A DNA stretch of 64,000 nt, from positions 1 through 64,000 of the forward strand of contig NIVC01001366.1 of assembly GCA_002269645.1 (NCBI GenBank). The letters are read 5' to 3'. The notes under the pieces were generated by a model, which was given only the letters and a program-made list of their open reading frames with translations, ran no database searches and was not told the origin of the DNA. The position numbers and the translations under genes were made by a program. Below are positions 2,091 to 34,220 of this stretch, piece after piece (the stretch's first letter is position 1; each line of letters starts with the position of its first letter). This DNA is from Macrostomum lignano. Taxonomy: Eukaryota.

Positions 2091-2867
2091 AGAGACTTGA
2101 CAAAATTGACTAAACCTGACCGGCTTTCCTATTCTAACTGAGGGAGGGATGTTGTGTCTGAGACTAAAGTTATCTGTGGCCTTAGCTCGTGAAACATTCT
2201 AAATGTTATAAGAGTAATAATTAAAGCTCACGGCACAAAACGGGCTTCTTCAAGTTTATGTTGATAAAATACTTCCGATTTTCCAATTTTTCTGAAACTT
2301 GCGGTAGACACTTATGGGGCAACCAAAATTACAAAAACGCAACAAAAAGCGTAGAGAATTACCTGTACGGTTGATAGGATGATAATTTACTTAATTCCTA
2401 TTCTCTTAATGATGATCGGTGACAAAAAGTTTCTAGGAATACATATTCAAAAGTGTATCCACTAGACTTTTAAACCAGTAGCACATGTGCTAGAAGTTCA
2501 TTAGGCCAATGAAAATTGAATGTTACTATCTACAAATTTATACGCAATTGTCTGTTAAGTTCCCCAATAATAGTTTTTCAATTTAGTTTTAATGCATGTA
2601 CAATTTGCCACGTCACTGTTCGTTTTTTAAAAACTGCCACGTCACGACCCGCTCGATTTTTTGCACTTGCGCACTTTCACTTGCACCTAGCCAAAGCTAC
2701 CTTCCAACATTCGCACTTCGCACCTTTGCACCTGTCAACTCCCAGCCAGTAACCGTACAAGACTATATTACTCATTCTAGTGTATTAAGGCAGTAGCAGC
2801 ACTTGATTTCGGTAAGCAAATTCATTCGAGATTTAGTTATAGACTTCAACCAAGGTCTGATATAATT

Positions 2868-4046
2868 ATGTTGACTCTTTGGTGGATTCTCTCGTTTCTC
2901 GTGTCGTCTGATTCAGATGACTTGTTTGAGGAAGACGTCCAAGGGTTCGAGGAGCAATGGAACCAACTTATGGACAATCAAGCTGCTCGTGGTGCTGACC
3001 GAGAGGCTGTACCAGGGGGAGCTTGTGCGGCCAATAATGCGGACTCCAAAGCTTCTACGAAATCCAAAGATGTTGTCAAACAAGCTTCTGGTAAGCGTCG
3101 TGGGCGACCGGCAGCATCTACTAAAATGTTCAATGTAAATATTGAGGAAGCTCGGTATGTTCTAGATTATAATCCGACACACACCGCATTCATTACTCAA
3201 TTTCACGAAAGTGAGACTGAGGTTTTGCAATTCTTGGTTAGAATCGGACTAATCGCCAATACCATGTTGTGTTCGTCATGCTCGGGTCCAATGGGATTAG
3301 TCAAAAGATCAAGTGTGGCGGACAAATCAACATGGTATTGCAAGAGTTGCCGAACCAATACCTCAATTCGCACAAAATCGTTTTTTGAGCGGTCTCATCT
3401 TAGTTTGTTTCAGTGCCTTCATATCATCTTTTGGTGGGCTGCTGATATTGGTGACTTTGATTTTATTGCAGCAGAGACTAAGGTGTCCCAACAAACGCTA
3501 GTGGACTGGTTCAATTTCTGCCGTGAAATTTGTACCAAATATCTTGAAGACCATCCCTTCAAGTTAGGCGGTCCAAATAAAATAGTGGAAATTGACGAGT
3601 CCCTGTACTTCAAGCGTAAGTACAACAAAGGCCGTCAGCGTGAGCAGAAGTGGGTGTTTGGCATGGTTGAACGTGGTTCTACTCATATCTTTCTAATACC
3701 GGTAAAAGATTGTTCTGCAGCGACTCTTTTACCCATAATAGAAGAGCGAGTGGAGCCTGGCACAATCATTATGTCAGATGAATGGCAAGCTTATAATAGG
3801 TTGTCAAATCATCGGACTGTGAACCACTCACTTAACTTCGTCTCTCCTGCTGATCGTGATGTGCATACGCAATCAGTGGAATCCATGTGGTGTCACTGTA
3901 AAAAGAAGTACAAGCGTATGCATCGGACATCTGAGGAACTGTTTCAATCTTATCTGAATGAGTTCCAATTTCGACGGCTGCACAAAAAGAGTGTTATGGG
4001 GTCTCTTCTGTATTGGATTCGACACTACTATTCCTTCAAGGATTAG
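2868..4046 (+). CDS. Merlin/ISXO2-like DDE transposase, intact ORF (true start may be a downstream Met)
   Basis: Zn-ribbon CSSC...WYCKSC; DWFNFCRE; GPNKIVEIDES (D1); KRKYNKGR; WVFGMVERG; IMSDEW (D2); HRTVNHS; VHTQSVESMW (E); YLNEFQFRR. Confidence 0.93.
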   Translation: MLTLWWILSFLVSSDSDDLFEEDVQGFEEQWNQLMDNQAARGADREAVPGGACAANNADSKASTKSKDVVKQASGKRRGRPAASTKMFNVNIEEARYVLDYNPTHTAFITQFHESETEVLQFLVRIGLIANTMLCSSCSGPMGLVKRSSVADKSTWYCKSCRTNTSIRTKSFFERSHLSLFQCLHIIFWWAADIGDFDFIAAETKVSQQTLVDWFNFCREICTKYLEDHPFKLGGPNKIVEIDESLYFKRKYNKGRQREQKWVFGMVERGSTHIFLIPVKDCSAATLLPIIEERVEPGTIIMSDEWQAYNRLSNHRTVNHSLNFVSPADRDVHTQSVESMWCHCKKKYKRMHRTSEELFQSYLNEFQFRRLHKKSVMGSLLYWIRHYYSFKD

Positions 4047-4544
4047 TAACTTCTAATCCAATCCTGTCGTACTCAGCCTAGGTTCAGTTAGCAATCAGTT
4101 AATAATACTCAATGTAATATAAATTCAAAATTTGCGAAAGTTAAAAGACAACAGCACAGAAATAGAGGTTGAGGAAAAAATGTTCTGATTGATATCTGTT
4201 CGAATTCAGTTTGAAGAAATTCAAAAAGAAAAAATTAGTCTTCATCTTCTGCTGGTGATGTCAAAAATTCTTGATTTCGAGTGCTCGAGTCACCAGTGTA
4301 CGGAGTTCTAGGTGTAGAGCCTGTGGGTACCTGCTGATTCCAGCTGTTCTGCTGAGACATGTCACTCGTGTACAGACAGGCCTAGGTGTAGAGCCTGTGG
4401 GCATCTGCTGATTCCAGCTGTTCGAATCTCGTGAAAATGTTACCTGTGAAGTGGGATTCGGTTTGAAAAGTATATAATTATAACTGTCTTTGATTAAATT
4501 GAAGTGAACACTCATAAGAAGTATACAATAATAACTGCCTTTGA

Positions 4545-5858
4545 TTAAACTAAAGTGAACACACATTTTCGAAATAAACTAACCTCTTTGCTTCCGAAAC
4601 GCAGTCTTATTCTTCGCATGTTGTTAAACTGGTGAAACATTCGTTCGGGGTAGTGTAATGTCATTTCTTCATCATGTGATGCTTGCTGCTCAGGTGGTGG
4701 AATCTGTGTCGCTCGCACAGCCTCGAAATGCTGCTGGCTAGCTGTGGCGCCGTTGTACCACTCGGTTAGGTCGGAGAACTCTTGCGAATTTTCTGGCCAG
4801 TGATGTACTTCTGCTTGCGAACAGCCGAGGCTTATCATCTGGGCGTACTCTTGGACTTGAGAGCCATGAATCGCGAGAATGTCGCCGATAGACCAATTAT
4901 TCACCTGCGCAGAAGAACTGGCCCAAAAAGTGCAGGACACAGAGGACCCGGACCGATCAACGATGGTAACTTTTGCTAAATCGACGAGCTTTCCGGCACC
5001 AGTTTTTACTTCCTTTGGCTTCTCAACTGCAGAAATGATGCCACGAACGTCAACTTTCCTGTCGTACGGTGAAAGTTTTTGAGTAGGGCAAATTTAGCTG
5101 AATGACTAGCAATCAGCGCCCCCGTTGGGCAGCCAAAAAATGCATTACAAGTTTTTTAATAAACTACATGTAGCGTCTCTTTGCAATACCTCAGCAGTCC
5201 CTTGTAAGCCTTGGCATGTTAGCAATTCCCCCCACAAGCCTTAGCATATCAATTTCCCCCCTTGACATCTCATCGATGCCCCCCTCCCCATTAAGCCTTG
5301 AAATCTTAAAAAATCGGTCAAGCTTTTAACCCTAACCTCAGCCTAACTCTAACCGTAACCCTAAAGTAAAGCAAAGCACGAGGAAATGTATAAAAGAAAA
5401 TAAAGGCACAAAGTGCAAGATATTTACGTTTTCATTTGGCATGCAGAAATTTCCGATATCCTCCTGTAGTCCCGGGGACGCCTGTTGACCGTCTCGTTTG
5501 AAGTCATGATGGTGCCGCTTTTGTCAACTGAGACGCTCATCTCATACTCGTTTTCCGTAGTGTTGTACCTTGGGTCAGCCTTTTTGATCCAGCCTCCAGA
5601 AATGCGCACTGTCTCGACCGTTTGGCACATTTCCAGCAATGACTTCAGGTCCTTGCCAAAAACGCTCACTCTGATGTCTGCAGTCTCGTCAGTCAAAGTG
5701 AAGGAGAACACTTGGCCTGATCCAGCTTTGTTGTTCTCGTAGGCGTGGATTTTTGTCAGTCTCGTTATCAGACCAACGACCGGTGAATCCATCAAGCCGG
5801 GCAGAAGAGCAGAGATGCCGAATTTGACCTTCTGGGCTGGCGTAGGGTTTGATTCCAT
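4545..5858 (-). CDS. RPA70-like ssDNA-binding protein (OB folds A and B only), 2 exons 5858-5428 and 5058-4545, about 314 aa; transposon cargo
   Basis: Exon 1 has GSGQVFSFTLTDETADIRVSVF...ADPRY...EYEM (DBD-A-like). A phase-2 intron (AC|GTAAAT...GACAG|G) joins in frame to KVDVRGIISAVE...IVDRSGSSVSCTFW...ILAIHGSQVQEY...DLTEWY (DBD-B-like). A possible extra donor GAG|GTTAGT near 4583 could lead to a third exon around 4440-4230. Confidence 0.82.
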
Positions 5859-6787
5859 TTCTCTTCGTTACTTAAAGAATCTAAGTTAAAAGTAGATAAA
5901 AGTGATGCTTGACTTGAAACAGTTGAGGCGAAAAGTTTACTGCATTTACAGTTTGTTTTTATTATATATTGCAGCCCTGCAGCCACCCCTTCGTCCCAAA
6001 ACAACTCTCAATATTTTCTCGCTGCCGTCTGATTGGTCAGCATCTCGACTTTCTGTTATAGCCTTTTTCTTACCGTCCACTCTATTCTATTTTTTAGTCA
6101 CCCCTGTTTGTAAATTTTAGCCACCTTTATAATTTTGGTGGCCTCTGATTGGTCCGCTGGTTTAGGCTGGGGTCGATTGGGGGCTGCAGTCAGCGCCAAC
6201 CCCTCCGCTGGGTCGAACTGGATCGCTGAGACTTTTTTCATGCAATTACTTTATTTGGGCTGTTTACGCGTGCCGCGGAAAGTTATTGATTTTTTGGACT
6301 ACAAGAACAAATACTAACAGATATAATATCAAATTATATAATAATAACTTTTGTTATTTTTTACAAAACAAAACTGAAACTTACACTTAAACTTAAAAGT
6401 GCATTTTGTAGCTAAATTTTCACGACAGAGGTAGAGAGACACCAGATAAAATCAATAATGAGGTGATTAAGTATGATGTCTCACCCTCATTGTCCACTGA
6501 AAACAAAATATAGGCTTATTAGGCTGGGCTGGGGAGTTAGGTGATTGGTTAGAAATAACTCAGGAATCAAAAGCCGACAGGGTGAGCCAATCATTGCTAG
6601 AGATAACAAGAGATTTGGGGGTGAAAAAACAGCAAATTTGGGGTGGTGGAGCAGGCAGCCATTATCTGGTTTTGGCCACTGTACACTATAGTATATATAA
6701 CCAACTCTGTTCTTAACAATTTCACTATACGCCCGAACAAAATAAAAAATAAGTTTAAAAGCCCACGCCAGTCTTTTTTCCAGTACT
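5859..6787. promoter_or_regulatory. Divergent promoter region between the two cargo genes
   Basis: ATTGG at 6032 and 6148, CCAAT at 6587, and TATATATAA at 6692-6700, about 90 bp upstream of ATG 6788. Confidence 0.5.
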
Positions 6788-7380
6788 ATGAATCCGTACC
6801 TAAGTAATCCCTACCTAAGTTATCCCAATCCCTATCCGTATCCCTATCCCTATCCCTATCCCTATCCATTTCCTGGTGTATTTTATCCCCCCCATCTACT
6901 GGGATGCCCTATCCCAACCCATACCCACCCCCTATTCTCCCACCGGCACCCTGGCCGATGCAGCAACAGCAGCAACAGCAAGAGGAGCAGCAACAACAAC
7001 AGCAACAACAACAACTGCAACAACAACAACAGCAACAACAACAACCGCAACAGCAACAGCAACAGCATCAACTGCAGCTACACTCGCGCTCAGCGCGAAC
7101 TCGATTTGTGAGAGACGAAATGCGCGCACGTAAGTTAATTGTATTACGAGTTTGTTTAGAGGGGTAGTTTTGACTAAATCAGTTTTCGTTTGACCACTCA
7201 TTTCGTGTGAAGTGAATATACGTCAAAACTAATATTGACAAATCTAATCGCTTTCTTTTCACAGTTGGACTCTGCAGATTCTGCCTGCGGCGCGGCCACA
7301 TTGCGGCAGAGTGCAGAGACCTACCTCGCCGCCGCAGCCGCAGCCGCAGCCGCAGCCGCAGCACTGTCGTTGAAGAATGA
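6788..7380 (+). CDS. Tyr/Pro-rich + polyQ + CCHC zinc-knuckle + RS-repeat protein, 2 exons (6788-7129, 7265-7380); about 152 aa with one G restored at 6901-6903, or 113 aa from ATG 6904; transposon cargo
   Basis: Donor C|GTAAGT at 7130, branch-like CTAAT near 7244, acceptor TTTCTTTTCACAG at 7264. The spliced product ends EMRALGLCRFCLRRGHIAAECRDLPRRRSRSRSRSRSTVVEE*, containing a CX2CX4HX4C knuckle. Confidence 0.75.
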
Positions 7381-7659
7381 ATCATTTTTTTAATTTCTGT
7401 GCTGTTAACTATTTGACTATTTGTATTTTGACTATTTATAACTATTTTTGCTGTTAACTAGGTTAAGTATTTGATTAAGTAAAAAATGGATTAAAAAATA
7501 AATAAAAATTTGATTAAGTGATTAAGTAAGTTAAACTACGACTAAAATGCTGAGTTAGGAGCACCTTAGGAGCACTTTACCAATTTAAGTAAAGTAAAGC
7601 TCTTTGTCTTATGATAAATCCGTTTTAATAATGAGTCTTTTGGTTTTTTTGGTTCTTCA

Positions 7660-7785
7660 AACAAAAGGAGCCACAATGTCATACATTAAAGAGGCACCAT
7701 GTAAAACATAAAAGAGCCGCCATGTCAAACACTAAAGAGCCACCATGTCGTACATAAAACAGCCACCGCGTCAAACATAAACATG
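7660..7785. repeat. Degenerate ~25-bp tandem repeat, about 5 copies
   Basis: Units of the form aaagagccaccatgtc..acat. Confidence 0.6.
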
Positions 7786-9197
7786 TCAAAACAGATAATT
7801 AAATGTAATAAATCACCAAAATAATTAAATGTATATAAATTGTGCAATGGGCTATCTTGTTGGTAAGCCTTTTGCAAGAAAATCATACAAGGCATGTGTG
7901 CAAAGAAATATTGTGCTAAATATTCGGAGTTGTCTTGTTGGTGAATGTAATTTAACGAAATTCACTCTTCATTTCGGCCTTCGTTCACAAGAATTCTATT
8001 TATTTATTGGCCAAAACTATACATTTACTATAATAATATATAAAAAACTGCCGAAATTTACTTTTTGTTTCTCATGCATTTTTTGTGTTAATAGTTTATT
8101 CTGATTCGGACACTACTAATAAGTAATAACTTTGGAAGTCACTTTTATTGGTATTCGCAGGAATGGACTGCGATAGCTTAATTATCGCATAAAGACTTTA
8201 AATTTTGGTGTATGTATTTTTTATGGAAAATATAATCTATAAGTAGAATAATCAATGAAATAAGGGCAGAGAAAATGGACGAATTCAACATTTTGGTGGT
8301 ACTGTTTAACAATGTATTAGTAAAGCAGCATAGTTGATATGAGTATGTATTCAATAAAGTCAAATTGAGCTGTTGAATGGATAATATTCCCATAAAAATA
8401 CACCAATTAATATTCTTTTGCTGCTGCACATTTTTGAAATTATAAAACCAATAAAAGATAACAGTCAACAGTGAGAAATAATCGAGGCCCTTTTAAGTCC
8501 TTCATTACTGATATAAGTTTTCGTACGATTTGCAGTCACCACTGAATTTAGCTACTAGGCTTATCCATTATTAACTTGACTTAAAATGGAGATTTGATAT
8601 GTAAAGTGAAAGACACTTTGAAGATTTTTATGTATATGTATTAAATCAAGATTCAAGAAGCAACATCTATTTGTTCTTGCCATTGTAACTTTTCATAAAA
8701 TCTGTTTTAAGGACCACTGCAGTACAAATATTGTTCGTTTTAGTACGCGTCATGCAGTTTATTCTGTATGTATGGTCATAGTAGGGCATTATTATAAAAA
8801 CAACAATTTTCGGCTCAAATTAATTTCAGTGCGAGTTGTCATCAACCAATGTGTATGTAAAAAAATGACTAATCTCTAGGTTACTGTTTAAAAATGCCTT
8901 AACTTATCATTTTTATTTCTTCACAGATAAACCTTACTTTCTGTGTGGCAAGTCTATTTATCTTTGTTTAAATACTAATACTGCATTCTTACGGATGTTA
9001 CATTGCTTTGTACAAATGTGCATGAAATGCGTAATTTTTATGCTATATAATTCTAATAAAAATCACAAAGAGATAATAGCAACCAAGAATCGCAGAGATA
9101 ATAGCAATACTTTTGTGAGTACAAACATATTTAATATGTAACAATAGAAAAATTTAGGAAAACCGTTTCAATTTGTCCCTTGCTTATTCGGCTTATT

Positions 9198-9312
9198 CTT
9201 GCTATCTGGGGGATGCTTGCTATCTGGGGGATGCTTGCTATCTGGGGGATGCTTGCTATTCGGGGGATGCTTGCAATCTGGGGGATGCTTGCTATGTGGG
9301 GGATGCTTGCTG
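9198..9312. repeat. 18-bp minisatellite CTTGCTATCTGGGGGATG, about 6 copies
   Basis: Direct reading of the sequence. Confidence 0.9.
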
Positions 9313-9687
9313 TCTTGCGATGATTTCTTTTTGCATTGCACTTCATTTGAGTATTTTGTCTGTTTTCTTTGTGAAGGCTTTATTTCGCTATCTTTTTGTT
9401 ACTTGTAGAGAACAGAGATTCTATACAGATGTCCCCCAACGGGGGGCGAAGATTGCTAGTTTGCCTCTGAAATTGAGTGTTGCTGTTGCCAAAATATGTT
9501 ACTATAAATTGTATCTTAGAGTATAAGTTATCTATATACTAAGCTATTTATTGAACCCCGGTGTCCGTTTGTCTAATTTGTCAATTGAGGATCAACATAT
9601 AAGATGCATTTAATAAAGGTGAGTGTTTCATTTAAGTCTTTTTCTTATATGCTATTTGTTGTAATACGGCGGAATTCATCAACACAT

Positions 9688-10290
9688 TTTTGAGTAGGTC
9701 TCCATGCCCTCTATTCAAGTTTATGTTGATAAAATCAATCCCCATGAAGAATCTCCCCACTCTAAAACCCCCCATTCCCCATGCCCCGGTGGTCGGTTTT
9801 GAGCTACGACCCCCCCCCCCTATTAGGATGGGAATAAATCAACACAATCTTGAATAGGTCTCCATGCCTCTATTCAAGTTTATGTTGATAAAATCAATCC
9901 CCATGAAGAATCTCCCCACTCTAAAACCCCCCATTCCCCATGCCCCGGTGGTCGGTTTTGAGCTACGACCCCCCCCCCCCCTATTAGGATGGGAATAAAT
10001 CAACACAATCTTGAATAGGTCTCCATGCCTCTATTCAAGTTTATGTTGATAAAATCAATCCCCATGAAGAATCTCCCCACTCTAAAACCCCCCATTCCCC
10101 ATGCCCCGGTGGTCGGTTTTAAGCTACGACCCCCCCCCCCCCCTATTAGGATGGGAATAAATCAACACAATCTTGAATAGGTCTCCATGCCTCTATTCAA
10201 GTTTATGTTGATAAAATCAATCCCCATGAAGAATCTCCCCACCCTAAAACCCCCCATTCCCCATGCCCCGGTGGTTGGTTTTAAGCTACA
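9688..10290. repeat. ~160-bp subterminal tandem array (about 3.7 copies) inside the Merlin element; each unit carries the TIR core
   Basis: Units start near 9690, 9851, 10012 and 10175, and each contains TTCAAGTTTATGTTGATAAAAT. Confidence 0.9.
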
Positions 10291-12044
10291 TATAATTGGG
10301 TTAAAGCTACCAAAAAATGGATCTCAAATTTGAAATCAGCACCATCAAAAACCCTTATAGAGACAAATTTATGATCCTATCAAAATTGCAACTATTTTAT
10401 CAACATAAACTTGAAGAAGTCCCACAAAACTTCTCAAGCGTAGTTTTGGGCCACTTGCCATCAAGTAAAACATTTGATTTCTAACCTTATGTTTGAGATC
10501 TCGGAGACTCAACAAACAGTAAATAGAGAGCATTAGACTGCTGCTGCTGCTGCTACAGCAAATTTAAATTGAAAAAGCAAGAAGTCGAAATAAAGAATGA
10601 CATGACAGATAGGCTGTCACGATGACAGAGTTCTCTTAATCTATATTGCTTTTATATAACATAGAACAAAAACTGTAAAGCATTGCCATCTAAACTGTAC
10701 GTCAAGTCTCTACTTTAAAGCTATGCTATGCAATAAAATAGGTCCCTATGGAATCTCTTTGCGAACAAATATTCCATATAGCTCCTATTAGGCATAGCAG
10801 AATCTGTCAGAAGTTGAACTTACCCAGTCAGGTCCTTTGCTAAAAAAAAACAAAGCCTCAGATTTGCTCGCTGCTCGCTCGCCTCTGCTGAATACAAGCT
10901 GGGGAAAGGCGCTCAGAATGAACTGCACTGCAACTGAGCCCACAGATCATAGGCTAAACTGGGGAGATTGCGAAAGCTGCTAAAATCAAAATTCTCAATA
11001 CAGGGCGCTAAAATCATAGTCTATGGCCGAGCTTCGCAACTAACCGAATTGAGCTAAGCAAATGATTAAGCGATAGGCTGTGTAAAGCGGTCAGTGTAGA
11101 GAAATAAGGTGGGGCGCCGGGCCCAAATTGGTATTTATGACATTGAATTGGAGGGGAGGGTTGAGTCCATGAGGCAGCGTTTGAGCCTGCCGCTGTACTT
11201 GCGCTAAATGACTAATTAAATGACTATTATTGAGTTATTGATTGCGTACATCTAGTGTGCACACCACCCCATTTAGTCCACGTGCGCCCCGCCACCGCCC
11301 CGCCAATAATTATTTTTTGTATCGATTTTGTTAGCATCGTTTATGACTAATAATATATCGAAACAGAGACATCGTTTATTTTACCAAATCATCGTGCTTA
11401 CTTAGTTGAACTCCTAAACAACGCGACAGTCCTAATAATAAACGGAGGGGTGGAATGCGCGGCTAAGGAAAGAGGCGAGATTGAGGAGCCAATCAGAAGG
11501 CAGCTAGGGAGAAAAAGATAAGAATAACAAGATTGAATTGGACAGAGAGGTCCAGAGAGAACGGGTCCATGAGAATTGGCCGCAGACAGGACGAACTGGC
11601 CGCCCAGATTTGCCGCAGTGCATTGTGCCCGTAAGCGAAAAGTTTTTCTCGCTGATGAATATTCTATAATATATCGTTAAAATACACTCAGCAACTTTGA
11701 AAAAGTCGACAATTCTATGCGCCAGTGAGCAATTTCTCTTGGACTTGGACTTTTATTCTGAAATAAAAGACATGAGAAAAGTGATCGGGGTAGCTTTAAT
11801 CCGCCCAACCCTCTCACATCGCTGCTCCACTTCATTCCTCAACTCAAGTCTGCCGCGGCGTAGCTGAGTTGCGACACTCGCAAAGATTGAGAGACTTTAC
11901 CTGCACTCTCAAAAGTGGCGACCACAGACGGAATCTTATGTGATTGCGACTTTTCGATGTTGCTGAGTGATATTTCCCGTAATGCTTAGCAAGTCCTAAT
12001 AAAGAGATTTAAAGAGATTTACCAGATCCAACAGCTGGCAACAG

Positions 12045-13128: not shown

Positions 13129-13777
13129 ATTCAACCGGGACGAGCTCGTCTCCATAATTTTCGCCTGTCTCTACACCCTGTCCCTTTTCTCCCCTCCCAG
13201 TTATTATCCTTCTCCCCTATCCTCCACTTCCGTATCGCCCCAGAAGCCGCACTCAGCGGTCCCCCAAGCCCCGCAAGCCTCATGCTGCCAGGCAGGCGCA
13301 GAGCTTCTATGCAAAAGCCCTGGATTTGCTCATTGAAGTGAGACAATGTGCGTGCTCACCCTCTATTTGCTAAATCTCAGACGGATAAATAAACTTATTT
13401 TGCACTGAGCGAACACTTAGACAGGGAGAAGTTCGAGAACGTACTGTGCATAGGAGTAGCTCACAACTACCAGTATGTACTCGAAAGCTTGCATTCAATG
13501 GCCTAGCCGAGGCAAAAATGGAAGTTCTGTTTTATTGAGTACACTCTGAGCAACACTTACTGCTGCTTAATCGATTTTAGCTATCTCTCTCATGTCTGCT
13601 GCTCAGACGCTGAGCCCCGCCTCAAGACAATTCAAGGCTTAAATGACTGGCCAACGATGCGGCTAAATTAGTACACTTGAACTCCATTTGTGTTCCATCC
13701 TCTGCTTCACTCAACGGGTTGAAGGATTAATTCATATGCTTGTCTGTGCTTTCGCCAAGCAGAAAGTGTAGAAAACC

Positions 13778-14734
13778 ATGGCTGAGCTTGCATATTTTGC
13801 ATCGCGAATTTTCAGGACGTCAACATCTAATGGATGCAGTTATGAGCTGCACTGTCTTATCGAGGAGACGAATCACCTGGCCACACAAATGGAAGAAATA
13901 AGACTGACTGATGAGCCGAAGTCAGAGAAACTGAGACGGGCACTGCAGAGCGTATGCGATATTGGATACGAGCTCATGTCGTGGTGTCGGTACTCGGAAG
14001 TAAAAGAATTGTTCAACCATTTTCAACGACTGTTTCCCGTCTCTAGCGAGTTTACTCGTGAAGCAAAGAGAGAGTTTTGTGAAAAGGTGCAGCAATCAAT
14101 TCGGAGTCTCAGAGACTCGCGTGAAGCTCTTGGAAGATTCAACGACGGACTGAATGACTCGCATCGGCTCGCAAAGAAGCTCTGTGAGAGGCTCACACAG
14201 AAGGCGGAGGAGCTCAAGCGGCAAAAGCACCAGACGAGAATCCGAGGGGCGGCAGGAGCAGCCGGTCTGGCTGTTGGAGGAGCCGGGCTCGCGGCCGTCA
14301 GTTTATTTACTGGAGGAGCTGCCCTGGTGGCCGCTGCAGCCGCAGCTGCCGCCGCTACCGCTGGAGCCACCTCTAGTGTCGCTGCCGGTGCCGTTGCTGC
14401 AACCACTGTCGCTAACGCAAAAACAAAACAACGGCAGGTTGAGAACATGCGAAATTGCTCAATGAAACTAGCTGTTATAGCAAGGAATATTGAGAGCATT
14501 CTCGACAAGGCCGGACGCATCCGACTAGACGAGGACATCGAGGCGCTGCAGACACTGTTGGAGCTGCTCAGCAGGGATGAAAGCCCGGACGAAGGCGGTG
14601 GCGAAGCAAGTGGAGCTGGATTTCTACTTCTGGGCCAGGACGGCCGCATCGCTCGGCAGCAGGAGCAGCGCGATGCAATGGATGCAGAGATTGCTGAGTT
14701 GGAGGCCAAGATGAGGATGTACGGCATCAAATAG
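13778..14734 (+). CDS. Coiled-coil protein with central Gly/Ala hydrophobic hairpin (ApoL/ClyA-like architecture), paralogue 1, 318 aa
   Basis: Intact intronless ORF. Helical N-half, then RGAAGAAGLAVGGAGLAAVSLFTGGAALVAAAA, then a C-terminal coil ending AEIAELEAKMRMYGIK. Confidence 0.75.
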   Translation: MAELAYFASRIFRTSTSNGCSYELHCLIEETNHLATQMEEIRLTDEPKSEKLRRALQSVCDIGYELMSWCRYSEVKELFNHFQRLFPVSSEFTREAKREFCEKVQQSIRSLRDSREALGRFNDGLNDSHRLAKKLCERLTQKAEELKRQKHQTRIRGAAGAAGLAVGGAGLAAVSLFTGGAALVAAAAAAAAATAGATSSVAAGAVAATTVANAKTKQRQVENMRNCSMKLAVIARNIESILDKAGRIRLDEDIEALQTLLELLSRDESPDEGGGEASGAGFLLLGQDGRIARQQEQRDAMDAEIAELEAKMRMYGIK

Positions 14735-15445: not shown

Positions 15446-16359
15446 GGGTTCGGTTGGACACAGTAGGAATTTTGTGTGACAATTGGGAACATTTAATCGC
15501 ACTTTAATTTTCTTTGATTTGTCTGCTTGGTAGAAATGACTGTTTGGAAGCAGCAAGTAAAAGTCATATGTTTGAATATTTACAGACAAGAAGTGAAAAT
15601 TCTACCTGAAAGTAATTCATTGATAGATTAAGCAAGTGGCATGCAAAAGTATTAGGCTTCAATATTTTCGAACAAAGTTGACCCCACTTTTTATCGATTG
15701 CTTCGGGAATAATATAGATAGAACTTTTGGGATTTCGGTGAAAGAGAGAATTTTTTTACCTAAAAACCTCATGACTAATCAACTGTTGAGGTCGGCCAGA
15801 GCTCTGACGATTCCAGTCTCTTTTTTGTTGTCTTCGCACCCAGAAAGCCTTCATTTTACCCAATAAAGTCCTTACTGATCGTAGTTTTTCAAAAGCAAGT
15901 CTGAATGTGGCACTGCGATGCAAAATGCTGAGACGTCAGCGTTCAGTATGATGATTCTTAATGACTCAGCACAAGTCGGAAAAATGCACCAAGCTATCAG
16001 TGTACCTGGCCGCTGCTCCAGGTGGTTCAGATTTGAGCAGAAAAATGATGAGTTCGGTTTTGACAATTCTGAGACTCTCGGGGATAGCATACGAGTAGGC
16101 AGCACTGCATTTCTGCAGTTTCAATGGCAAACGGAGGGCAAATAGGGGCCAATGGTCATCGCATTGTACTTAGGCTGCAAACGGCTTATCATTGGCGAAT
16201 TCTCTGCCTCACACTCAAACCATCACTGTACATCTGTGCGAATGGTCACATCAGCCTGCGCTTTGAACAACAATGCTCAGATGAGTATAATTACATTGGA
16301 ATTCAAATCTTATACTGAAATAACTGAACCAAATAGATCGAAACCAACAACCCTTGAAA

Positions 16360-17385
16360 ATGGTAGAACGGCTGGGTGAGGTCGGTCAAGGCCTGAAAGA
16401 CATCGGCGATGCCGTCAAATTGATAAAGCAGATCCAAAAGAAAGAATCGTTGCTGATCGAATTTACCGAAGAAATAAAAAACCAAGCCAGCAAATTGGTG
16501 AAAATCAGCCTCCCAGATCATCCGCGGCTAAAGCGTCTTGAGCCTCAGCTACAACATCTAAGGGAAAATTTTATTTTTTTAATTAATTCCGAAGGTGACC
16601 TGGAGAACTGGCTCGAAGCTTTTTTCAAAAAGCTTACCAGATGTAACGAATTTATAAATTCCCAAATTCAGAACGGCAGCATCCCCCCTGAAGCAACTAA
16701 AGAAATCTATAAAGCGCTAATGTATCTGAACAACATGGTAAATGACTTCTTCAAATATTTTGAGAAATTCATCACCAATTTGAACGAATCGCAGCATATT
16801 GCGGAGGAGCTCAAGTGCCAGCTAGAAGAGACGGCAAAAGAGATTGAGGAGGAAGCGACAGAGGCAGAACAGGCCGAACTGAAACGACAAGCTGAGATAA
16901 AGCAGCAAACCGAAATGGGACGTCAAGCTGAAGTGAAGCAAAAAAGGTGGACCATTGGCAGTACCTTGGGTCTGCTTGTTGGAGGCGCCAGTCTCGCGGC
17001 TCTCGGCTTCTTCACAGGCGGGGCTGCCTTCGCTGCTGCAGGCGCAATCGTGGGAGCCGTCGGTTACTCCTACTACCCCTCTAACGACTCTAATGACTCG
17101 CAGGTCGGAGCAGACTCGAGGTCTATACAGTCTGACTTAGGCGCGATGCGACACCTAGCTGAGAATATCAAGGCCACGTCTAACCAGCTGGGCGTCATCG
17201 CGACGAGACTGAAGTACAGCTGCAACGAGGCCAGCAAAATTCATCTGAGCGAAACAGACAAAGAAGCACTGCAGACCGCATTGGAATTCCTTCAAAAAGA
17301 CCAGGCGAAGGACGACCGCATCAATCAACAGCAGGCAGAGATTAATGAGTTAAAGGCCAAGATGAGGAGGCATGGCATCGAATAG
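16360..17385 (+). CDS. Coiled-coil/hydrophobic-hairpin protein, paralogue 2 (about 341 aa from ATG 16360)
   Basis: GSTLGLLVGGASLAALGFFTGGAAFAAAG hairpin. C-terminus AEINELKAKMRRHGIE matches paralogue 1. Confidence 0.75.
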   Translation: MVERLGEVGQGLKDIGDAVKLIKQIQKKESLLIEFTEEIKNQASKLVKISLPDHPRLKRLEPQLQHLRENFIFLINSEGDLENWLEAFFKKLTRCNEFINSQIQNGSIPPEATKEIYKALMYLNNMVNDFFKYFEKFITNLNESQHIAEELKCQLEETAKEIEEEATEAEQAELKRQAEIKQQTEMGRQAEVKQKRWTIGSTLGLLVGGASLAALGFFTGGAAFAAAGAIVGAVGYSYYPSNDSNDSQVGADSRSIQSDLGAMRHLAENIKATSNQLGVIATRLKYSCNEASKIHLSETDKEALQTALEFLQKDQAKDDRINQQQAEINELKAKMRRHGIE

Positions 17386-20759: not shown

Positions 20760-21996
20760 AGAGGCTTACTGAGACGGTGAATCCGCTGGTCCCACAGGTG
20801 CAGGAAATACAGCTGACTGAGATGAGGTGCTCTCCGAGGAGATGAAGCAGGAACTGAGGCGGGGACTGCAGAAGATGCGCGACATTGCATGCGATCTGAA
20901 TCCGTGGCAACGTCATTTAGAAGTAGAAAGCTTGATTAATTTTGCTAGGAAGTATTTTGCTGCTCAAGAGCATACCCATGAAGCAACAGAAGAATTCCGT
21001 CAAATAATCCAGCATACAGTAGGAAGCCTCAGGGAGTGCTGCAAGCGGCTCAGTAGTTTCACTGATATACTGAGTAAGTTTCGTCGGATCGTAAAAGTGC
21101 TCGACGAGACGCTCACACAGAAGGCGGAGGAGCTGGAGCGTAGGGATCGCAAAATCCCGGTTTTTTGCCATCTCGGGATCCCGGGATTTAATCCCGGAAT
21201 TTCGCCAATCCCGGGATCAGAAAAATACAGATTTTTAAGCATCTGGGTTGACATTTTAAGGCAAAATATGCGCTAAACGTTCTTGCTTCCATTTTTGATT
21301 GTTTTAGAGTTAATGATCTATTTTTAGATGAAAAAACAGCATTATCTTGTGACGAATTGAAGCAAGTAGTATAAAATTACTAATTAGTAGTAAAGAAGCA
21401 AATCATATATCAAAAATTTACATTTAATAAATTTCACATTTTAATCTGTGATGCGGAGTTTAAATTAAAAAGGCGCCACGCGACTAACGGAAATTAGCGC
21501 AGTATAATAAACTTGTTGTGGGCCCAATTATGTTAATTTATTATTACAACACTTTCTAAAAATAATAACAAAAATTTCATTTGTCCCGGGATTGGGCCCA
21601 AATTCGGGGTCTCGAATCCCGGGATTTCGGGATCCTGGGATCCCGGGATTGCAATCCCTACGGAGCGGCAAGAGCGCAGAACAAGGACACAGGGGGCGGC
21701 TGGAGCTGTCGGCCTGGCTAATGGCGGTGTCGGGCTCGCAGCCCTTAGTTTACTAACTGGAGGAGCTGCCCTACTTGCCGCTGCCGCTGTCGCAAGCTCT
21801 GTCGGCATCCATGGCGACAGCGATCAGGGATGCAAATGCAACACGACAGCAGGTCGCGGACATGCGAGCTCGCTGCAGAAAGTTGTCTGTTATGGGACAC
21901 AAACTAAAGTACATTCTCGACAAGGCCACATGCATAATCGTACGGCTGGAGGAGGACATTCAAGGACTGCAGTCAGTGCTGTATAGCTTCAGATGA
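20760..21996 (+). pseudogene. Paralogue 3 of the hairpin family, disrupted by a MITE, frameshifts and a stop
   Basis: LTQKAEELER|(MITE)|QERRTRTQGAAGAVGLANGGVGLAALSLLTGGAALL...YILDKA...RLEEDI aligns with paralogue 1. Frameshifts near 20818 and 21805. Confidence 0.8.
21141..21660. mobile_element. hAT-like MITE, 520 bp, inserted in paralogue 3
   Basis: TIRs TAGGGATCGCAAAATCCCGG and (reverse complement) TAGGGATTGCAATCCCGG. Flanks CTGGAGCG and C-GGAGCG form an imperfect TSD. Removing the element and one TSD copy restores the reading frame. Confidence 0.85.
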
Positions 21997-25867: not shown

Positions 25868-26829
25868 TCATGCAGCGCGGGCGACTCTGCGCCTCGTGCG
25901 CAACCTTTGAGCATGTAGCATATTAATGCGGTTTAGAATGTCGCCGCGCATCGCCCGCATCTCATTTTGGATGGCGGCCAAGGCTGCGCGATTCTCGGCC
26001 AAGGCTGCGCGATTTTCGGCCGAGGCTGCGCGATTTTCGGCCAAGGCTGCGCAATTTTCGGCCAAGGCTGTGCGATTCTCGGCCAAGGCTGCGCGATTTT
26101 CGGCCAAGCTGCGCGATTTTCGGCCCGGTCGGCCCGCACCTCATCTAAGATGGCGGCCAAGGCGGCTCGATTTTCGGCCAAGGCGGCGCGATTCTCGGCC
26201 AAGGCTGCGCGATTCTCGGCCAAGGCTGCGCGATTTTCGGCCCGGTCGGCCCGCACCTCATCTAAGATGGCGGCCAAGGCGGCTCGATTTTCGGCCAAGG
26301 CGGCGCGATTCTCGGCCAAGGCTGCGCGATTCTCGGCCAAGGCTGCGCGATTTTCGGCCCGGTCGGCCCGCACCTCATCTAAGATGGCGGCCAAGGCGGC
26401 TCGATTTTCGGCCAAGGCGGCGCGATTTTCGGCCAAGGCAGCGCGATTCTCGGCCAAGGCTGCGCGATTCTCGGCCAAGGCTGCGCGATTTTCGGCCCGG
26501 TCGGCCCGCACCTCATCTAAGATGGCGGCCAAGGCGGCTCGATTTTCGGCCAAGACGGCGCGATTCTCGGCCAAGGCTGCGCGATTTTCGGCCAAGGCTG
26601 CGCGATTCTCGGCCAAGGCTGCGCGATTTTCGGCCCGGTCGGCCCGCACCTCATCTAAGATGGCGGCCAAGGCGGCTCGATTTTCGGCCAAGACGGCGCG
26701 ATTCTCGGCCAAGGCCGCGCGATTCTCGGCCCGGTCGGCTCGAATTTCCGCCAAGACCCATGCAGCGGAAACCGCGGACGCAGTGGATGCTACAGCAGCA
26801 GCCGCCACAAGCAGACTCTGATTGCTGTC
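25868..26829 (-). CDS. Heptad-repeat coiled-coil exon, long copy A (about 320 aa): hydrophobic N-segment, (AENRAAL)n rod, Arg-rich tail; 1-nt deletion near 26107
   Basis: Acceptor TTATTTATCTCAG|GAC. Only one frame stays open through the linkers (AAILDEVRADR). Ends RLRTRRRVARAA*. GGCCAAGGCTG is reduced to GGCCAAGCTG at 26107. Confidence 0.55.
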
Positions 26830-28519
26830 CTGAGATAAATAACAGATGCATTTCCATATGTTCACGGCATGTCGGATTTGCAAAGTTCAAGTTAAGAAAC
26901 TGTTCCAGAGGGTCTTAGGGCCTTCTTAATTTCACAACCGAGTCCGGCTGCTGCTCAATCGGGCGCAAAGTCTCTCAGAGCTACTACGGAGCCAGCCTTT
27001 GTTTGAAGGCCGACATCCTACCAGAACGGGATCACACGAAACCGTTGAACATCTCGACGGCGACTGTATCGGCAACTTCCTTCGTTCCTTGCAGGTCGAT
27101 GCTGGTTCTTGTGTAGCGGGCGCACCTAGAACCTGGGGAGCGCGCTTTGATAGTGGGTTCTGGTGAAGGGGCGCAACAGGGACTGGGAGTGGTAGAGGCA
27201 GCTAATCCGTTGACATCGCTGATTTTGGTCAAGGCTGATGCGCAGAGCTTCTCAGGAAAGCAATCAGAAAAGAGGACGTGATGGCTCCAGTGCTCCTTTC
27301 TGCGCCATCGCCTCCAGTCATACGGAATGAAGCATTACGCTTTCCTCGCCTCGGCTCGTAGATGCTGAAGCAGCTTCCGGATGTGTACGTGTACACACTC
27401 AACCCTGTATATGCACACACTCCTCAAATATGTACAGGTACACACGCTAAACTATAAACGCACAAAAAACTGAACACGTCTCTAAACTATAAAGTTGTAA
27501 AGTGAAATAATTGTTATTAAGACTGGTAAACGGCACAGTCAGGCTGCATCCACAATGTCATCGTATATCAGGCAACAGAAATTAGGATCTACTGTCGTAA
27601 AGATGGTAGAAATAGAGCGTGCTTTTTGATACGCTTTCGGTTCAATTACAATTAATTGAAAGCAAAACACGAGTCAGCAGCAACTGTCAGTATCTCTACT
27701 CGTATATCTCTATCACAAGCAATGCTGAGCAGGTTCTCACTCCAAACAGCGTGCAGGATTGTAGATACCGCACACTCTTTTTCATTTTAATTACTTAAAC
27801 TGCTAAAAAATGGGCCTAGTGGGACAGCACATTCACCGCCAGAGCTTGCAAGTCAAGCAGATTCGCCTAAGCAGATTGCAGTGTTGGAGCTGAATAGGCT
27901 TACGTAACACCGTACCTTGTAGGCAGTTACCACAGGTGGTCACTTGTGCTAAGCTCTCTGCTGTGATTGAGTAGCGCCTCTGAGCTTATAATAATAATAA
28001 TATCTGGTCTGATATCTTGTTAATACTAATAATAGTGTCTGGGCCACAGAGACCGACTGCAGCGAGGGACAAAAAGCGACGCAAACCAGCCGGGGACAGG
28101 CCAGACCTCCCAACTCGAACCAAACAGAACCAGGCCAGCCCAGGCAAAACTGCGCACTTCTAGTGTGAAATTTCCCTAAATCATCTCATCAACATAAATG
28201 ACTCAAATGACATCAAATCGCACGACTGATGAATGAACATTTGTACAATACTTTAATTAAACGGAATATGGCCTTATTTGAGCACTGATGCTTTTGACAT
28301 CTGTTTTCATGTTGTCAGCTGCGATGCCGCCTCCTCACTTCATTTTCAGGTCACTCGGCAGCGGGGCTGCAAATCGTGCGCGCAGACCAGCGGCGTCTGC
28401 ACGGCAGTCCCGCGTTCAGCTGGCAGATTCGGGCTGTCCTACCGCAAAACGCTGGGTGCCATGCCAGAGGGGAACTCGCTGCGATGCTGAATCAAAAGTC
28501 ACCACCGGAAGATCTGCAG

Positions 28520-32297: not shown

Positions 32298-32957
32298 CGC
32301 TGAACTCGCTCACAGTGGTGATGCCACCAGCGGACATCTGTTGAAAGGGCGGTAAGCAGTCCGGATAGACTTGGAGAGCAAATTGTGCGGATTCAGTGAC
32401 GGCTATAATTTAAAACGGGCCAAAATTTCTCGACAAGAGCAGTTGAGTCCCCTTTGTTAAAATGATCTGCTCAAACTTCAGCACCTCCACCAAACTAAAC
32501 GAGAAGTGTGTAAAATCTGTCGAGAGCAAGACAGCCTCATGCAACAAGGCTGGGAAGCAGCTTTTTAGGACCTGAAAATGAGGAACAAGTGGGCCTGCTT
32601 GATGCTTCAAAATGCTGTGAATAACATATTCAGTAACCATATCAACTATTAATATAGTAACCATATCTACTGTATTATTATAGAAACGGACGTTGACGCA
32701 TTGGAAGGCAGAAGTGCATTTCAAATGCCGTCGGCGGGGTGGGCAATCATGCAGTTCATTATGCACATGTACTGCATGCACATTATAATATGACACATTT
32801 TGCACATTCGGACGAATATTTAAAAACACGCCAGGAGACAGCTGGAGCCATTTGCACTGACGGCAGCTGACCTGAAATGAATATTTGCGTGCGACTCTCA
32901 CCTGCACTTGGCCTTCCGCAGGTCCTCCTGAGCTGCTGCCACAGCCGCGACACGGCA

Positions 32958-33314
32958 TCATGCAGCGCGGGCGACTCTGCGCCTCCTGCGCAACCTTCGA
33001 GCACGTACCATATCAATGCGGTCCAGAATTTCGCCGCGCATTGCCCGCATTTCATTTAAGATGGCGGCGAGGTCGGCGCGATTCGCTCGCATTTCGCCGC
33101 GCATCGCCCGCATTTCGCCGCGCATCGCCCGCATCTCATCTAAGATGGCGGCGAGGTCGGTGCGATTTTCGGCCAAGGCGGCGCGATTCTCGGCTCGATC
33201 GGCGCTATTTTCGGCCCGGTCTGCGCGAATTTCCGCCAAGGCCCATGCAGCGGAAACCGCGGACGCAGCGGATGCCACAGCAGCAGCCGCCACAAGCAGA
33301 CTTTGATTGCTGCC
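32958..33314 (-). CDS. Heptad-repeat coiled-coil exon, short copy B (118 aa)
   Basis: Acceptor TTATTTGTTTCAG|GGC. Reads GSNQSLLVAAAAVASAASAVSAAWALAEIRADRAEN...ILDEMRAMRGE...RARRLRRRRRVARAA*. Flanks are homologous to copy A. Confidence 0.55.
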   Translation of the reverse strand, partial: GSNQSLLVAAAAVASAASAVSAAWALAEIRADRAENSADRAENRAALAENRTDLAAILDEMRAMRGEMRAMRGEMRANRADLAAILNEMRAMRGEILDRIDMVRARRLRRRRRVARAA

Positions 33315-34220
33315 CTGAAACAAATAACAGATGCGTTTCCGTGTGCTCACAGCATGTCTAACTGGTGCAGTCTCCGAATGCAACATCTGCTTGTCTATGC
33401 TGAACTCCCTGCGCGCAGGCAAAAAGCAAAAAGCCAAAGCCAGCACCACTAATTCTAATGCCGAGACGAACAATCAGGCAGCCAGAGTACAAATCAATGT
33501 ATATTTTAAATTTAGAAAACAGCTATCGAAAATGTCTACTATCGGTAGTCAGTCGGCTCTGTGCAACAAGCTGCGAGTGGAAGGGCCGGTGGATCTTGCT
33601 GATTCTCTAGAAATAATAATAATAAGACTAAAAAATCTAACGGAAAGCGAGACAAAGAGGGCGGCGAACTCGTGCAACAAAATCTACGCTACTACAAAAC
33701 GCGAGGCGGACTCAAAGTGAAAGAGAACAACAAAAACGGAGTAGCAGAGTATTGGTTTAATATCTCGGCCTTCTCATAGGAGGCTTTAATAATATTGGTC
33801 AGACATTCTCCATTACTAACAGTAGAGTGAGAAGAAAACGTAGCTATTGAATTCATCTGGAAATCTTCAAATTCTAAACGGAGACAGCGCGGACTGCGGA
33901 GGTTCCAGAAAGCGGCCTGGCTGGCAAGAGGACACGCGTTGAGCACGGGGAAAATAAAAACTCGGGCATCTGCTGCGGCCGCTCGCTGGAACTGAAAGAG
34001 ACGCTTGGGCGCTCGCTAAATAAGGGTGAGCGCGGGGCTAACACAGGGCTACACAAGAGAGATTTCTTAATGTCTGAGTTTGCACTAATACACAAATTCT
34101 ATGGCGGGCTACACAACGGACAGTCTACTACAGATTATGGAGTCATTGTTCTCCAGCCAAATCTAAGAAAATGTTCAAAATGAGCCAAGCTCCAAGTTAA
34201 TCAAAGACCAGCTCGCTTCA

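Follow-up and report, generated by a model that had tools for sequence, protein, structure and literature searches.

The 64,000-nucleotide stretch of Macrostomum lignano DNA analysed here (the window) carries an 8,181-bp Merlin DNA transposon at positions 2242–10422, and the best-supported novelty of this element is a spliced helper gene resembling RPA70. Back to back with that gene, and enclosed by the same transposon, lies a candidate gene at 6788–7380. Its sequence makes it likely that this candidate is a real two-exon gene, unannotated and broken by one base in the window copy. The initial annotation, which described the candidate, is partly confirmed in its observation and partly supported in its interpretation; the RPA70-like gene, absent from that annotation, is the better supported cargo of the two.

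The ends of the element, its transposase and its subterminal repeat are as follows.

2234–2241, no strand assigned: left target-site duplication, CACAAAAC, an exact 8-bp match to 10423–10430
2242–2282, plus strand: left terminal inverted repeat, 41 nt, beginning with GG and 90% complementary to 10382–10422
2781–4046, plus strand: Merlin/IS1595-type DDE transposase frame, stop to stop, with its first ATG at 2871
9671–10289, no strand assigned: subterminal repeat of 161 bp in 3.8 copies, every copy containing 22 nt that duplicate the core of the inverted repeat
10382–10422, minus strand: right terminal inverted repeat, 41 nt, beginning with GG
10423–10430, no strand assigned: right target-site duplication, CACAAAAC, an exact 8-bp copy of the left one

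By all three sequence criteria, namely an IS1595 DDE domain, inverted ends that start with GG and an 8-bp target duplication (among lengths of 4–11 bp the match is at 8 only), this segment is a Merlin element, and the carrier proposed in the initial annotation is upheld. The transposase matches PF12762 (DDE_Tnp_IS1595) of Pfam with an E value of 4.8e-25 and 88.8 bits, against a cut-off of 27. Its triad, D242, D303 and E337, is kept at each position in 30 of the 30 top relatives aligned, and its N-terminal four-Cys motif in 27–29 of the same 30. In the 5' region of the frame (2781–2916), 105 nt could be spliced out in frame between a GTAAGC donor at 2812 and an acceptor at 2916; this putative intron (2812–2916) has no preceding ATG, and many variants in the DNA-like run described below fall across the region.

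Sequencing data took the form of contigs only, which are strandless and whose RNA or DNA nature is guessed. A run search found the stretch in 20 of 24 listed runs, from eight studies; four of the 24 were aligned, three RNA-like (X12, X17 and X20) and one DNA-like (X2), with 6818–7082 and 7320–7369 skipped as repeats. As to mobility, at least one X12 contig has another flank before position 2241 (contig data, four runs), and six database proteins are at least 90% identical to the RPA-like cargo, in an assembly that is partly duplicated according to the available text of PMC5730564. In X2 the transposase has a depth of about 81 and the cargo one of about 250, contig depth being no measure of copy number. 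All four runs show very high depth over a 23-bp repeat at 7657–7781 and over a short repeat at 5105–5315, in the first intron of the RPA-like gene; each is therefore common in other parts of the genome too. An 18-bp repeat at 9198–9315 (6.6 copies) is open on both strands, with all Pfam matches below cut-off, and its frames are probably non-coding. Rfam gave no match over 2200–10500.

The RPA70-like gene lies between the transposase and the candidate gene.

4235–5858, minus strand: RPA70-like gene of three exons, encoding two OB folds and an acidic C-terminus
5858–5428, 5058–4584 and 4443–4235, minus strand: its exons, with introns at 5059–5427 and 4444–4583

Both introns are skipped in all three RNA-like runs and retained in the sole DNA-like run. 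The first exon is 99% identical to P0123, a 370-residue protein annotated in M. lignano, and the 90% cluster of the product has six members, four of them NCBI gene models from contigs that differ in length; P0125 (49%) and P0126 (48%) form a second RPA-like family in the same species. Residues 14–225 match residues 186–396 of RPA70, which span DBD-A and DBD-B, with an E value of 9.5e-14. Four aromatic residues, F67, Y98, W189 and Y215, align with RPA70 F238, F269, W361 and F386, which we take to be those that stack on DNA. The protein has neither the N-terminal OB domain of RPA70 nor its C-terminal zinc-binding trimerisation domain: the match begins at residue 14, and beyond about residue 247 of the 370 there is none. 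We infer from this alignment that the protein binds single-stranded DNA. Against metagenome contigs, the RPA-like alignment matched 0 of 233 stretches.

The window copy of this gene has two extra bases near 4376 that are absent from all four runs and from P0123, P0275 and P0276. Because of them the frame ends at 362 residues; once they are removed it runs to 370, as in the database proteins. At least one indel is thus private to the window copy, and a one-base slip in the neighbouring candidate gene, at 6887–6903, would be no surprise, though it is unproven.

The two cargo genes are separated by 929 bp that may serve as a common control region.

5859–6787, no strand assigned: predicted divergent promoter common to both cargo genes, with TATA and CCAAT boxes, its function being a prediction

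A TATATAA motif lies 110 nt before the ATG of the RPA-like gene on the minus strand, and another 94 nt before ATG 6788 on the plus strand; a third TATA-like site is found at 6334–6341. Four NF-Y-like CCAAT boxes occur in this region, compared with 0.17 expected (0 of 500 shuffles). A strong, pyrimidine-rich acceptor at 6769–6783 lies 5 nt upstream of ATG 6788, and 6582 is a possible donor. The acceptor might receive a spliced leader, trans-splicing affecting 38.8% of M. lignano genes in the available text of PMC5730564; the X17 and X20 contigs cross it unspliced.

The candidate gene on the far side of this region has the following predicted parts.

6788–7129, plus strand: predicted exon 1, encoding NPYLS/(YP)n repeats, a Pro-rich linker, polyQ and a basic linker, as read from the sequence
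6887–6903, plus strand: one-base frame break of the window copy, at a C7 run (6887–6893) or a G3 run (6901–6903)
7130–7264, plus strand: predicted 135-nt intron, GTAAGT...TTTCTTTTCACAG, with an in-frame stop inside
7265–7380, plus strand: predicted exon 2, with a CCHC knuckle at 7273–7314, an RS tail at 7327–7362 and a stop
7381–9080, plus strand: possible long 3' untranslated region, from strandless X17 and X20 contigs, with an AATAAA at 9055

Exon 2 reads CRFCLRRGHIAAEC (the knuckle) and then RRRSRSRSRSRS (the RS tail), up to a TGA at 7378–7380, and joining 7129 to 7265 places the knuckle in frame with the polyQ. The spacing of the knuckle is exactly CX2CX4HX4C, with Gly before the His and basic flanks, as the initial annotation described; the Pfam model zf-CCHC (PF00098) matches exon 2 below its cut-off (E = 0.012, 16.1 bits compared with 20.8). 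The Arg/Ser tail does follow the knuckle and is short, with five RS pairs in 10 residues. It had been claimed that both motifs appear only after removal of the intron. This is not the case: they lie entirely within exon 2 and can be read unspliced in a stop-to-stop frame at 7216–7380, which has 54 residues and no ATG. Splicing thus supplies the start, not the motif.

The low-complexity N-terminus was correctly identified, the NPYLS/(YP)n codons and the polyQ being present in the sequence. As a single gene running from 6788 to 7380, however, the candidate is interrupted as assembled: all its parts are present and a two-exon gene is the likeliest reading, but the frame opened by ATG 6788 is shifted by one base from that of the polyQ. 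This ATG, with A at −3, opens a frame of 107 residues that stops at 7111 and lacks the knuckle, and ATG 6904 opens an intact spliced frame of 113 residues. One base is indeed missing, as had been proposed for the GGG at 6901–6903; the C7 run at 6887–6893 is an equally good site, and restoring a base at either run gives 152 residues. Excision of the frame break as part of a small intron was rejected by eye, no acceptor having a fitting phase and none being listed between 6783 and 7264.

The 152-residue product would contain 33 Gln, 25–26 Pro and 12 Tyr. Such a composition might mark an activation domain in a protein that prevents closure of the element, in the manner of VANC in VANDAL elements, and tandem repeats, which VANC targets often form according to the available text of PMC5735166, occur in this element also. 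Pfam scans of the exon frames detected no double-stranded-DNA-binding domain, however, and no RRM, and the likeness to VANC is one of analogy; a role in transcription appears improbable to us. We tentatively prefer to see in the product a small RNA-binding protein of the nucleus that would assist the transcripts of the element itself.

Several features argue that the candidate is a gene and not a chance arrangement, although the knuckle patterns and the tests applied to them were chosen post hoc, with the sequence already seen. The codon pattern CX2CX3GHX4C occurs once in the 64-kb window, against 0.01 expected, and 1 of 100 shuffles reached one; the looser CX2CX4HX4C occurs three times in the six frames of the window. 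Among 3000 simulated elements, 44 had a knuckle anywhere and none had one within 30 nt of a strict acceptor. GTAAGT donors number six on the plus strand of the 64 kb, and strict acceptors like that at 7264 number eight in the 64 kb. A putative branch site, CTAAT, lies 20 nt upstream of the AG, and with the donor and the acceptor it fits the predicted 135-nt intron. GC content steps from 0.58 at the end of exon 1 to 0.33 in the intron, 0.66 in exon 2 and 0.19 in the downstream DNA.

Two further observations concern the coding frame. The sequence YPNPYP is encoded at 6821 in one frame and again at 6910 in the other; between the two 18-mers there are four differences, every one a synonymous third-position change. 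This suggests that the halves flanking the frame break have been translated together as one protein. The polyQ alone is weak evidence, because plain CAA/CAG microsatellites lie nearby (1148–1202).

These signs bear on the view that 6788–7380 does nothing for the element, being either low-complexity DNA that is transcribed or a captured exon in decay. The frame break favours this view, but the four zinc ligands, both splice sites, the branch site, the GC steps and the stop are intact together, the YPNPYP repeats keep their synonymous pattern, and the candidate has its own TATA box. We consider this view unlikely, and return to it below with the evidence in its favour; a functional RNA-binding helper is the reading we continue with.

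Contigs across the candidate are compatible with its transcription. X17 covers 6526–6817 and X20 covers 6516–6814; the two runs come from two studies, and both carry the RPA-like gene in spliced form. Their contigs start within 10 nt of each other at a place where the DNA-like run continues, a weak hint at a 5' end. Downstream of the stop, X17 contigs cover 7370–7724 and 7721–8702, and X20 contigs cover 7449–7755, 7901–8861 and 8860–9080, the last X20 contig ending 20 nt past an AATAAA. This cover is consistent with a single plus-strand transcript that has a long 3' tail, the contigs themselves being strandless. Cover in X17 and X20 is zero at 7051–7281 and 7282–7319 (by bin arithmetic) and over the transposase, with gaps at 6370–6525 and 6328–6515; these gaps were not counted as evidence.

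The splice joint 7129–7265 is absent among the joints listed, but the unmasked exon sequence flanking the intron amounts to only 47 and 55 letters, and a hole in such cover is no proof of absence. In X12 the intron 7130–7264 is covered by unspliced contigs, one of them with a 41-nt skip inside. Outside the RPA-like gene, X12 cover is flat, at 0.085–0.164 of that in the DNA-like run (contig depth being a poor measure), so the unspliced intron in X12 may be DNA in the library. At least one X12 contig that spans the spliced RPA-like gene departs from the window at 6743 into 187 other letters, and the best match of this loose end within the window is only 19 of 30. We read the sequence past 6743 as another version of the element, or as an insertion at the 5' end of the candidate. 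Some copies that bear the RPA-like gene may consequently lack the start of the candidate gene.

Relatives of the candidate were sought with each exon. Exon 2, with five intron codons, gave 0 of 193 candidates at E ≤ 10 among proteins of 75–2000 residues, and exon 1 gave 0 of 7041 at E ≤ 1 among proteins of 133–2000 residues; exact look-ups of six frames (two unspliced frames of the candidate and four of the transposase) found none. The initial annotation had pointed to other Merlin copies as a place for homologues. The transposase alignment kept 80 loci of 489, only 15 of the 80 being at least 5 kb long, and near these 80 transposases no convincing RPA-like or knuckle-RS neighbour was found. 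What did appear there was one weak tblastn match (E = 0.29), one weak HMM match, to the transposase itself, and one knuckle within a coiled-coil frame that is unrelated. One metagenome locus with a Merlin-type transposase (L029) has a long frame on the opposite strand, in which a coiled coil follows a CCHC-like motif. In viral contigs, related transposases numbered 0 of 56. On this thin sample of 80 loci the cargo looks lineage-specific.

The missing homologues of either exon, the absence of the two unspliced frames from the collection, the lack of cargo-like neighbours at loci of which so few reach 5 kb, and the variant diverging at 6743 are each what the view of the candidate as passenger or dead DNA would lead one to expect. 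Were that view true, an RPA-carrying Merlin would remain.

The nearest structural matches of exon 2 are retroviral. Its best PDB matches are nucleocapsids, at weak E values of 0.013–0.54, and the Atlas search likewise gave retroviral nucleocapsid-like leads, which are leads only, the best score being 0.81 (below 0.9). As to origin, these leads could mean that the knuckle exon derives from a Merlin that once carried gag/pol, or from a captured piece of a retrotransposon, either of which is compatible with the functional readings. The frames of the element, however, contain no capsid, protease, reverse transcriptase or polymerase, and no LTR was found (frames of at least 50 residues in 5870–10422, read by eye, are short or repeat-derived, and two of them were scanned with Pfam). 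With the knuckle in a spliceosomal exon of its own and the Atlas scores below 0.9, a gag remnant seems very improbable.

Single-stranded nucleic acid is the established ligand of CCHC knuckles, and an RS stretch is the mark of nuclear proteins that process RNA, as with SRSF7 (PMC9022966). On this background, a small nuclear helper that binds RNA made by the element is a possible, and still tentative, account of the candidate when taken as a whole mechanism. One divergent TATA/CCAAT region would drive both cargo genes. Removal of the intron 7130–7264 would give 152 residues in intact copies, the frame break representing an assembly slip or a private mutation of the window copy. The single knuckle would bind zinc and single-stranded RNA; the short Arg/Ser tail would provide charge, nuclear import and control by phosphorylation; and the Tyr/Pro and polyQ region may concentrate the protein in nuclear granules. 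There it could aid the splicing, the export or the shielding from host surveillance of the element's intron-containing RNAs, and the RPA-like protein would cover single-stranded DNA at the excision break.

A different use of the same parts is the annealing of DNA: a nucleocapsid-like factor and the RPA-like protein together would steer the excision break to templated gap repair, so that the donor element is restored and copies increase. The RS tail, typical of RNA-processing proteins, is out of place here, and there is one knuckle only. The arrangement of the candidate back to back with a gene resembling RPA70 DBD-A/B that keeps four aromatic positions does suit such a partnership, as do the nucleocapsids among the best PDB matches of exon 2, although these matches are weak and generic for any knuckle, and a common promoter need not mean a common step. 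Gap repair by strand annealing multiplies cut-and-paste elements in the available text of PMC3878927. We regard this explanation as unlikely, although it is the main rival, and stay with the RNA-binding helper.

In its sequence the candidate resembles two known kinds of protein, as the initial annotation proposed, and the likeness holds for parts of each. The spacing from knuckle to RS tail is, we presume, close to that of SRSF7. In SRSF7/9G8 and the plant RSZ proteins a CCHC knuckle is likewise followed closely by an Arg/Ser run (available text of PMC9022966 and PMC3173450), whereas the candidate has a Tyr/Pro and polyQ N-terminus and no sequence match to an SR protein. Since SR proteins are defined by one or two N-terminal RRMs (PMC3173450) and the RS domain by at least 50 residues with more than 40% RS dipeptides (PMC9022966), again in the parts of these sources available, the lack of an RRM and the five RS pairs rule out that identity. 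With Gag nucleocapsids the candidate shares CX2CX4HX4C, the Gly before the His, the basic flanks and the weak PDB matches; it differs in being a stand-alone spliced gene with one knuckle in a DNA transposon, and the absence of a capsid, pol frame or LTR from the element excludes Gag identity. The candidate product is neither of these, though its mode of action may resemble that of a nucleocapsid or of the knuckle-RS half of SRSF7.

The carrier itself can be compared with described Merlin elements, which form the IS1016 group of the IS1595 family, with inverted ends of 24–462 bp starting with GG and an 8- or 9-bp duplication (available text of PMC8101967). The present element is alike in its GG inverted ends, 8-bp duplication, DDE_Tnp_IS1595 D-D-E and internal tandem repeats. 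Merlin elements are described there with a single transposase, one family having a C-terminal ZZ finger and one overlapping ORF being thought due to chance; the window element, in contrast, measures 8.2 kb and has two extra intron-containing genes, and its transposase also has the N-terminal four-Cys motif. No Merlin in the parts of the literature covered, PMC5730564 included, was found to carry an RPA-like or knuckle gene, and the main texts of PMC12730594 and PMC3627910 contain none of the key terms; such families may nevertheless be described in Repbase or Dfam, in the original Merlin paper, in subscription journals or in bioRxiv supplements.

Helitrons of plants, cnidarians and fish are known to carry RPA-like helper genes (available text of PMC6431247); like this Merlin, they are transposons with their own gene for an RPA-like single-stranded-DNA-binding protein. 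Helitrons differ in their rolling-circle replication, Rep/helicase and obvious single-stranded intermediate, and Helitron identity is ruled out here by the DDE transposase, the inverted ends and the 8-bp duplication. Helper genes beside a DDE transposase are also found in KolobokD/E/H/P (PMC9587614) and in VANDAL with VANC (PMC5735166); in the available parts of these sources, the elements belong to other superfamilies and the helpers are of other kinds (nucleases and a helicase, and an anti-silencing protein, respectively).

Thus far, RPA-like helpers have been described as a Helitron trait tied to rolling-circle replication, and Merlin elements as having a single transposase. Here a DDE element has kept a spliced RPA-like gene, and the species has a second family about 49% identical. 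This suggests that selection favours control of single-stranded DNA once the element has been excised, which is when cut-and-paste elements gain copies. With a small knuckle-RS partner, the element would also help itself at the level of RNA. Both genes might even define a Merlin subfamily with a repair-and-RNA kit, in which a monomeric mini-RPA and a nucleocapsid- or SR-like knuckle protein, expressed from one CCAAT-rich promoter in dividing cells, would steer the element's own excision repair and RNA handling, so that it copies rather than merely moves; this broader proposal is speculative, and we think it rather doubtful. M. lignano is a free-living laboratory model open to transgenesis, so every proposed step can be tested directly.

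The remainder of the window contains further coding and repetitive sequence. To the left of the Merlin element, 1209–1802 on the minus strand holds an RNase H and zf-RVT-like fragment of a non-LTR retrotransposon beside a CAG/CAA microsatellite. Three similar-looking single-exon frames, at 13772–14734, 16324–17385 and 20821–21276, encode helical proteins with a Gly/Ala-rich hydrophobic segment, and we read them as a local gene family; Pfam gave nothing above cut-off for the first two, which were the two scanned. Related repeat-rich frames, built of 21-bp units, occur at 25911–26918 and 32876–33473 and resemble coiled coils when read on the minus strand; one of them includes, at 32978, a looser CCHC-like match that has no Pfam hit. 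From 31111 to 58647 lie what are presumably host genes, judged by eye from their translations: TRAPPC2L-like, propionyl-CoA carboxylase alpha-like, a FYVE/B-box protein, BRICK1-like, alpha-mannosidase II-like, THOC3-like and a protein kinase. Their introns are full of minisatellites.
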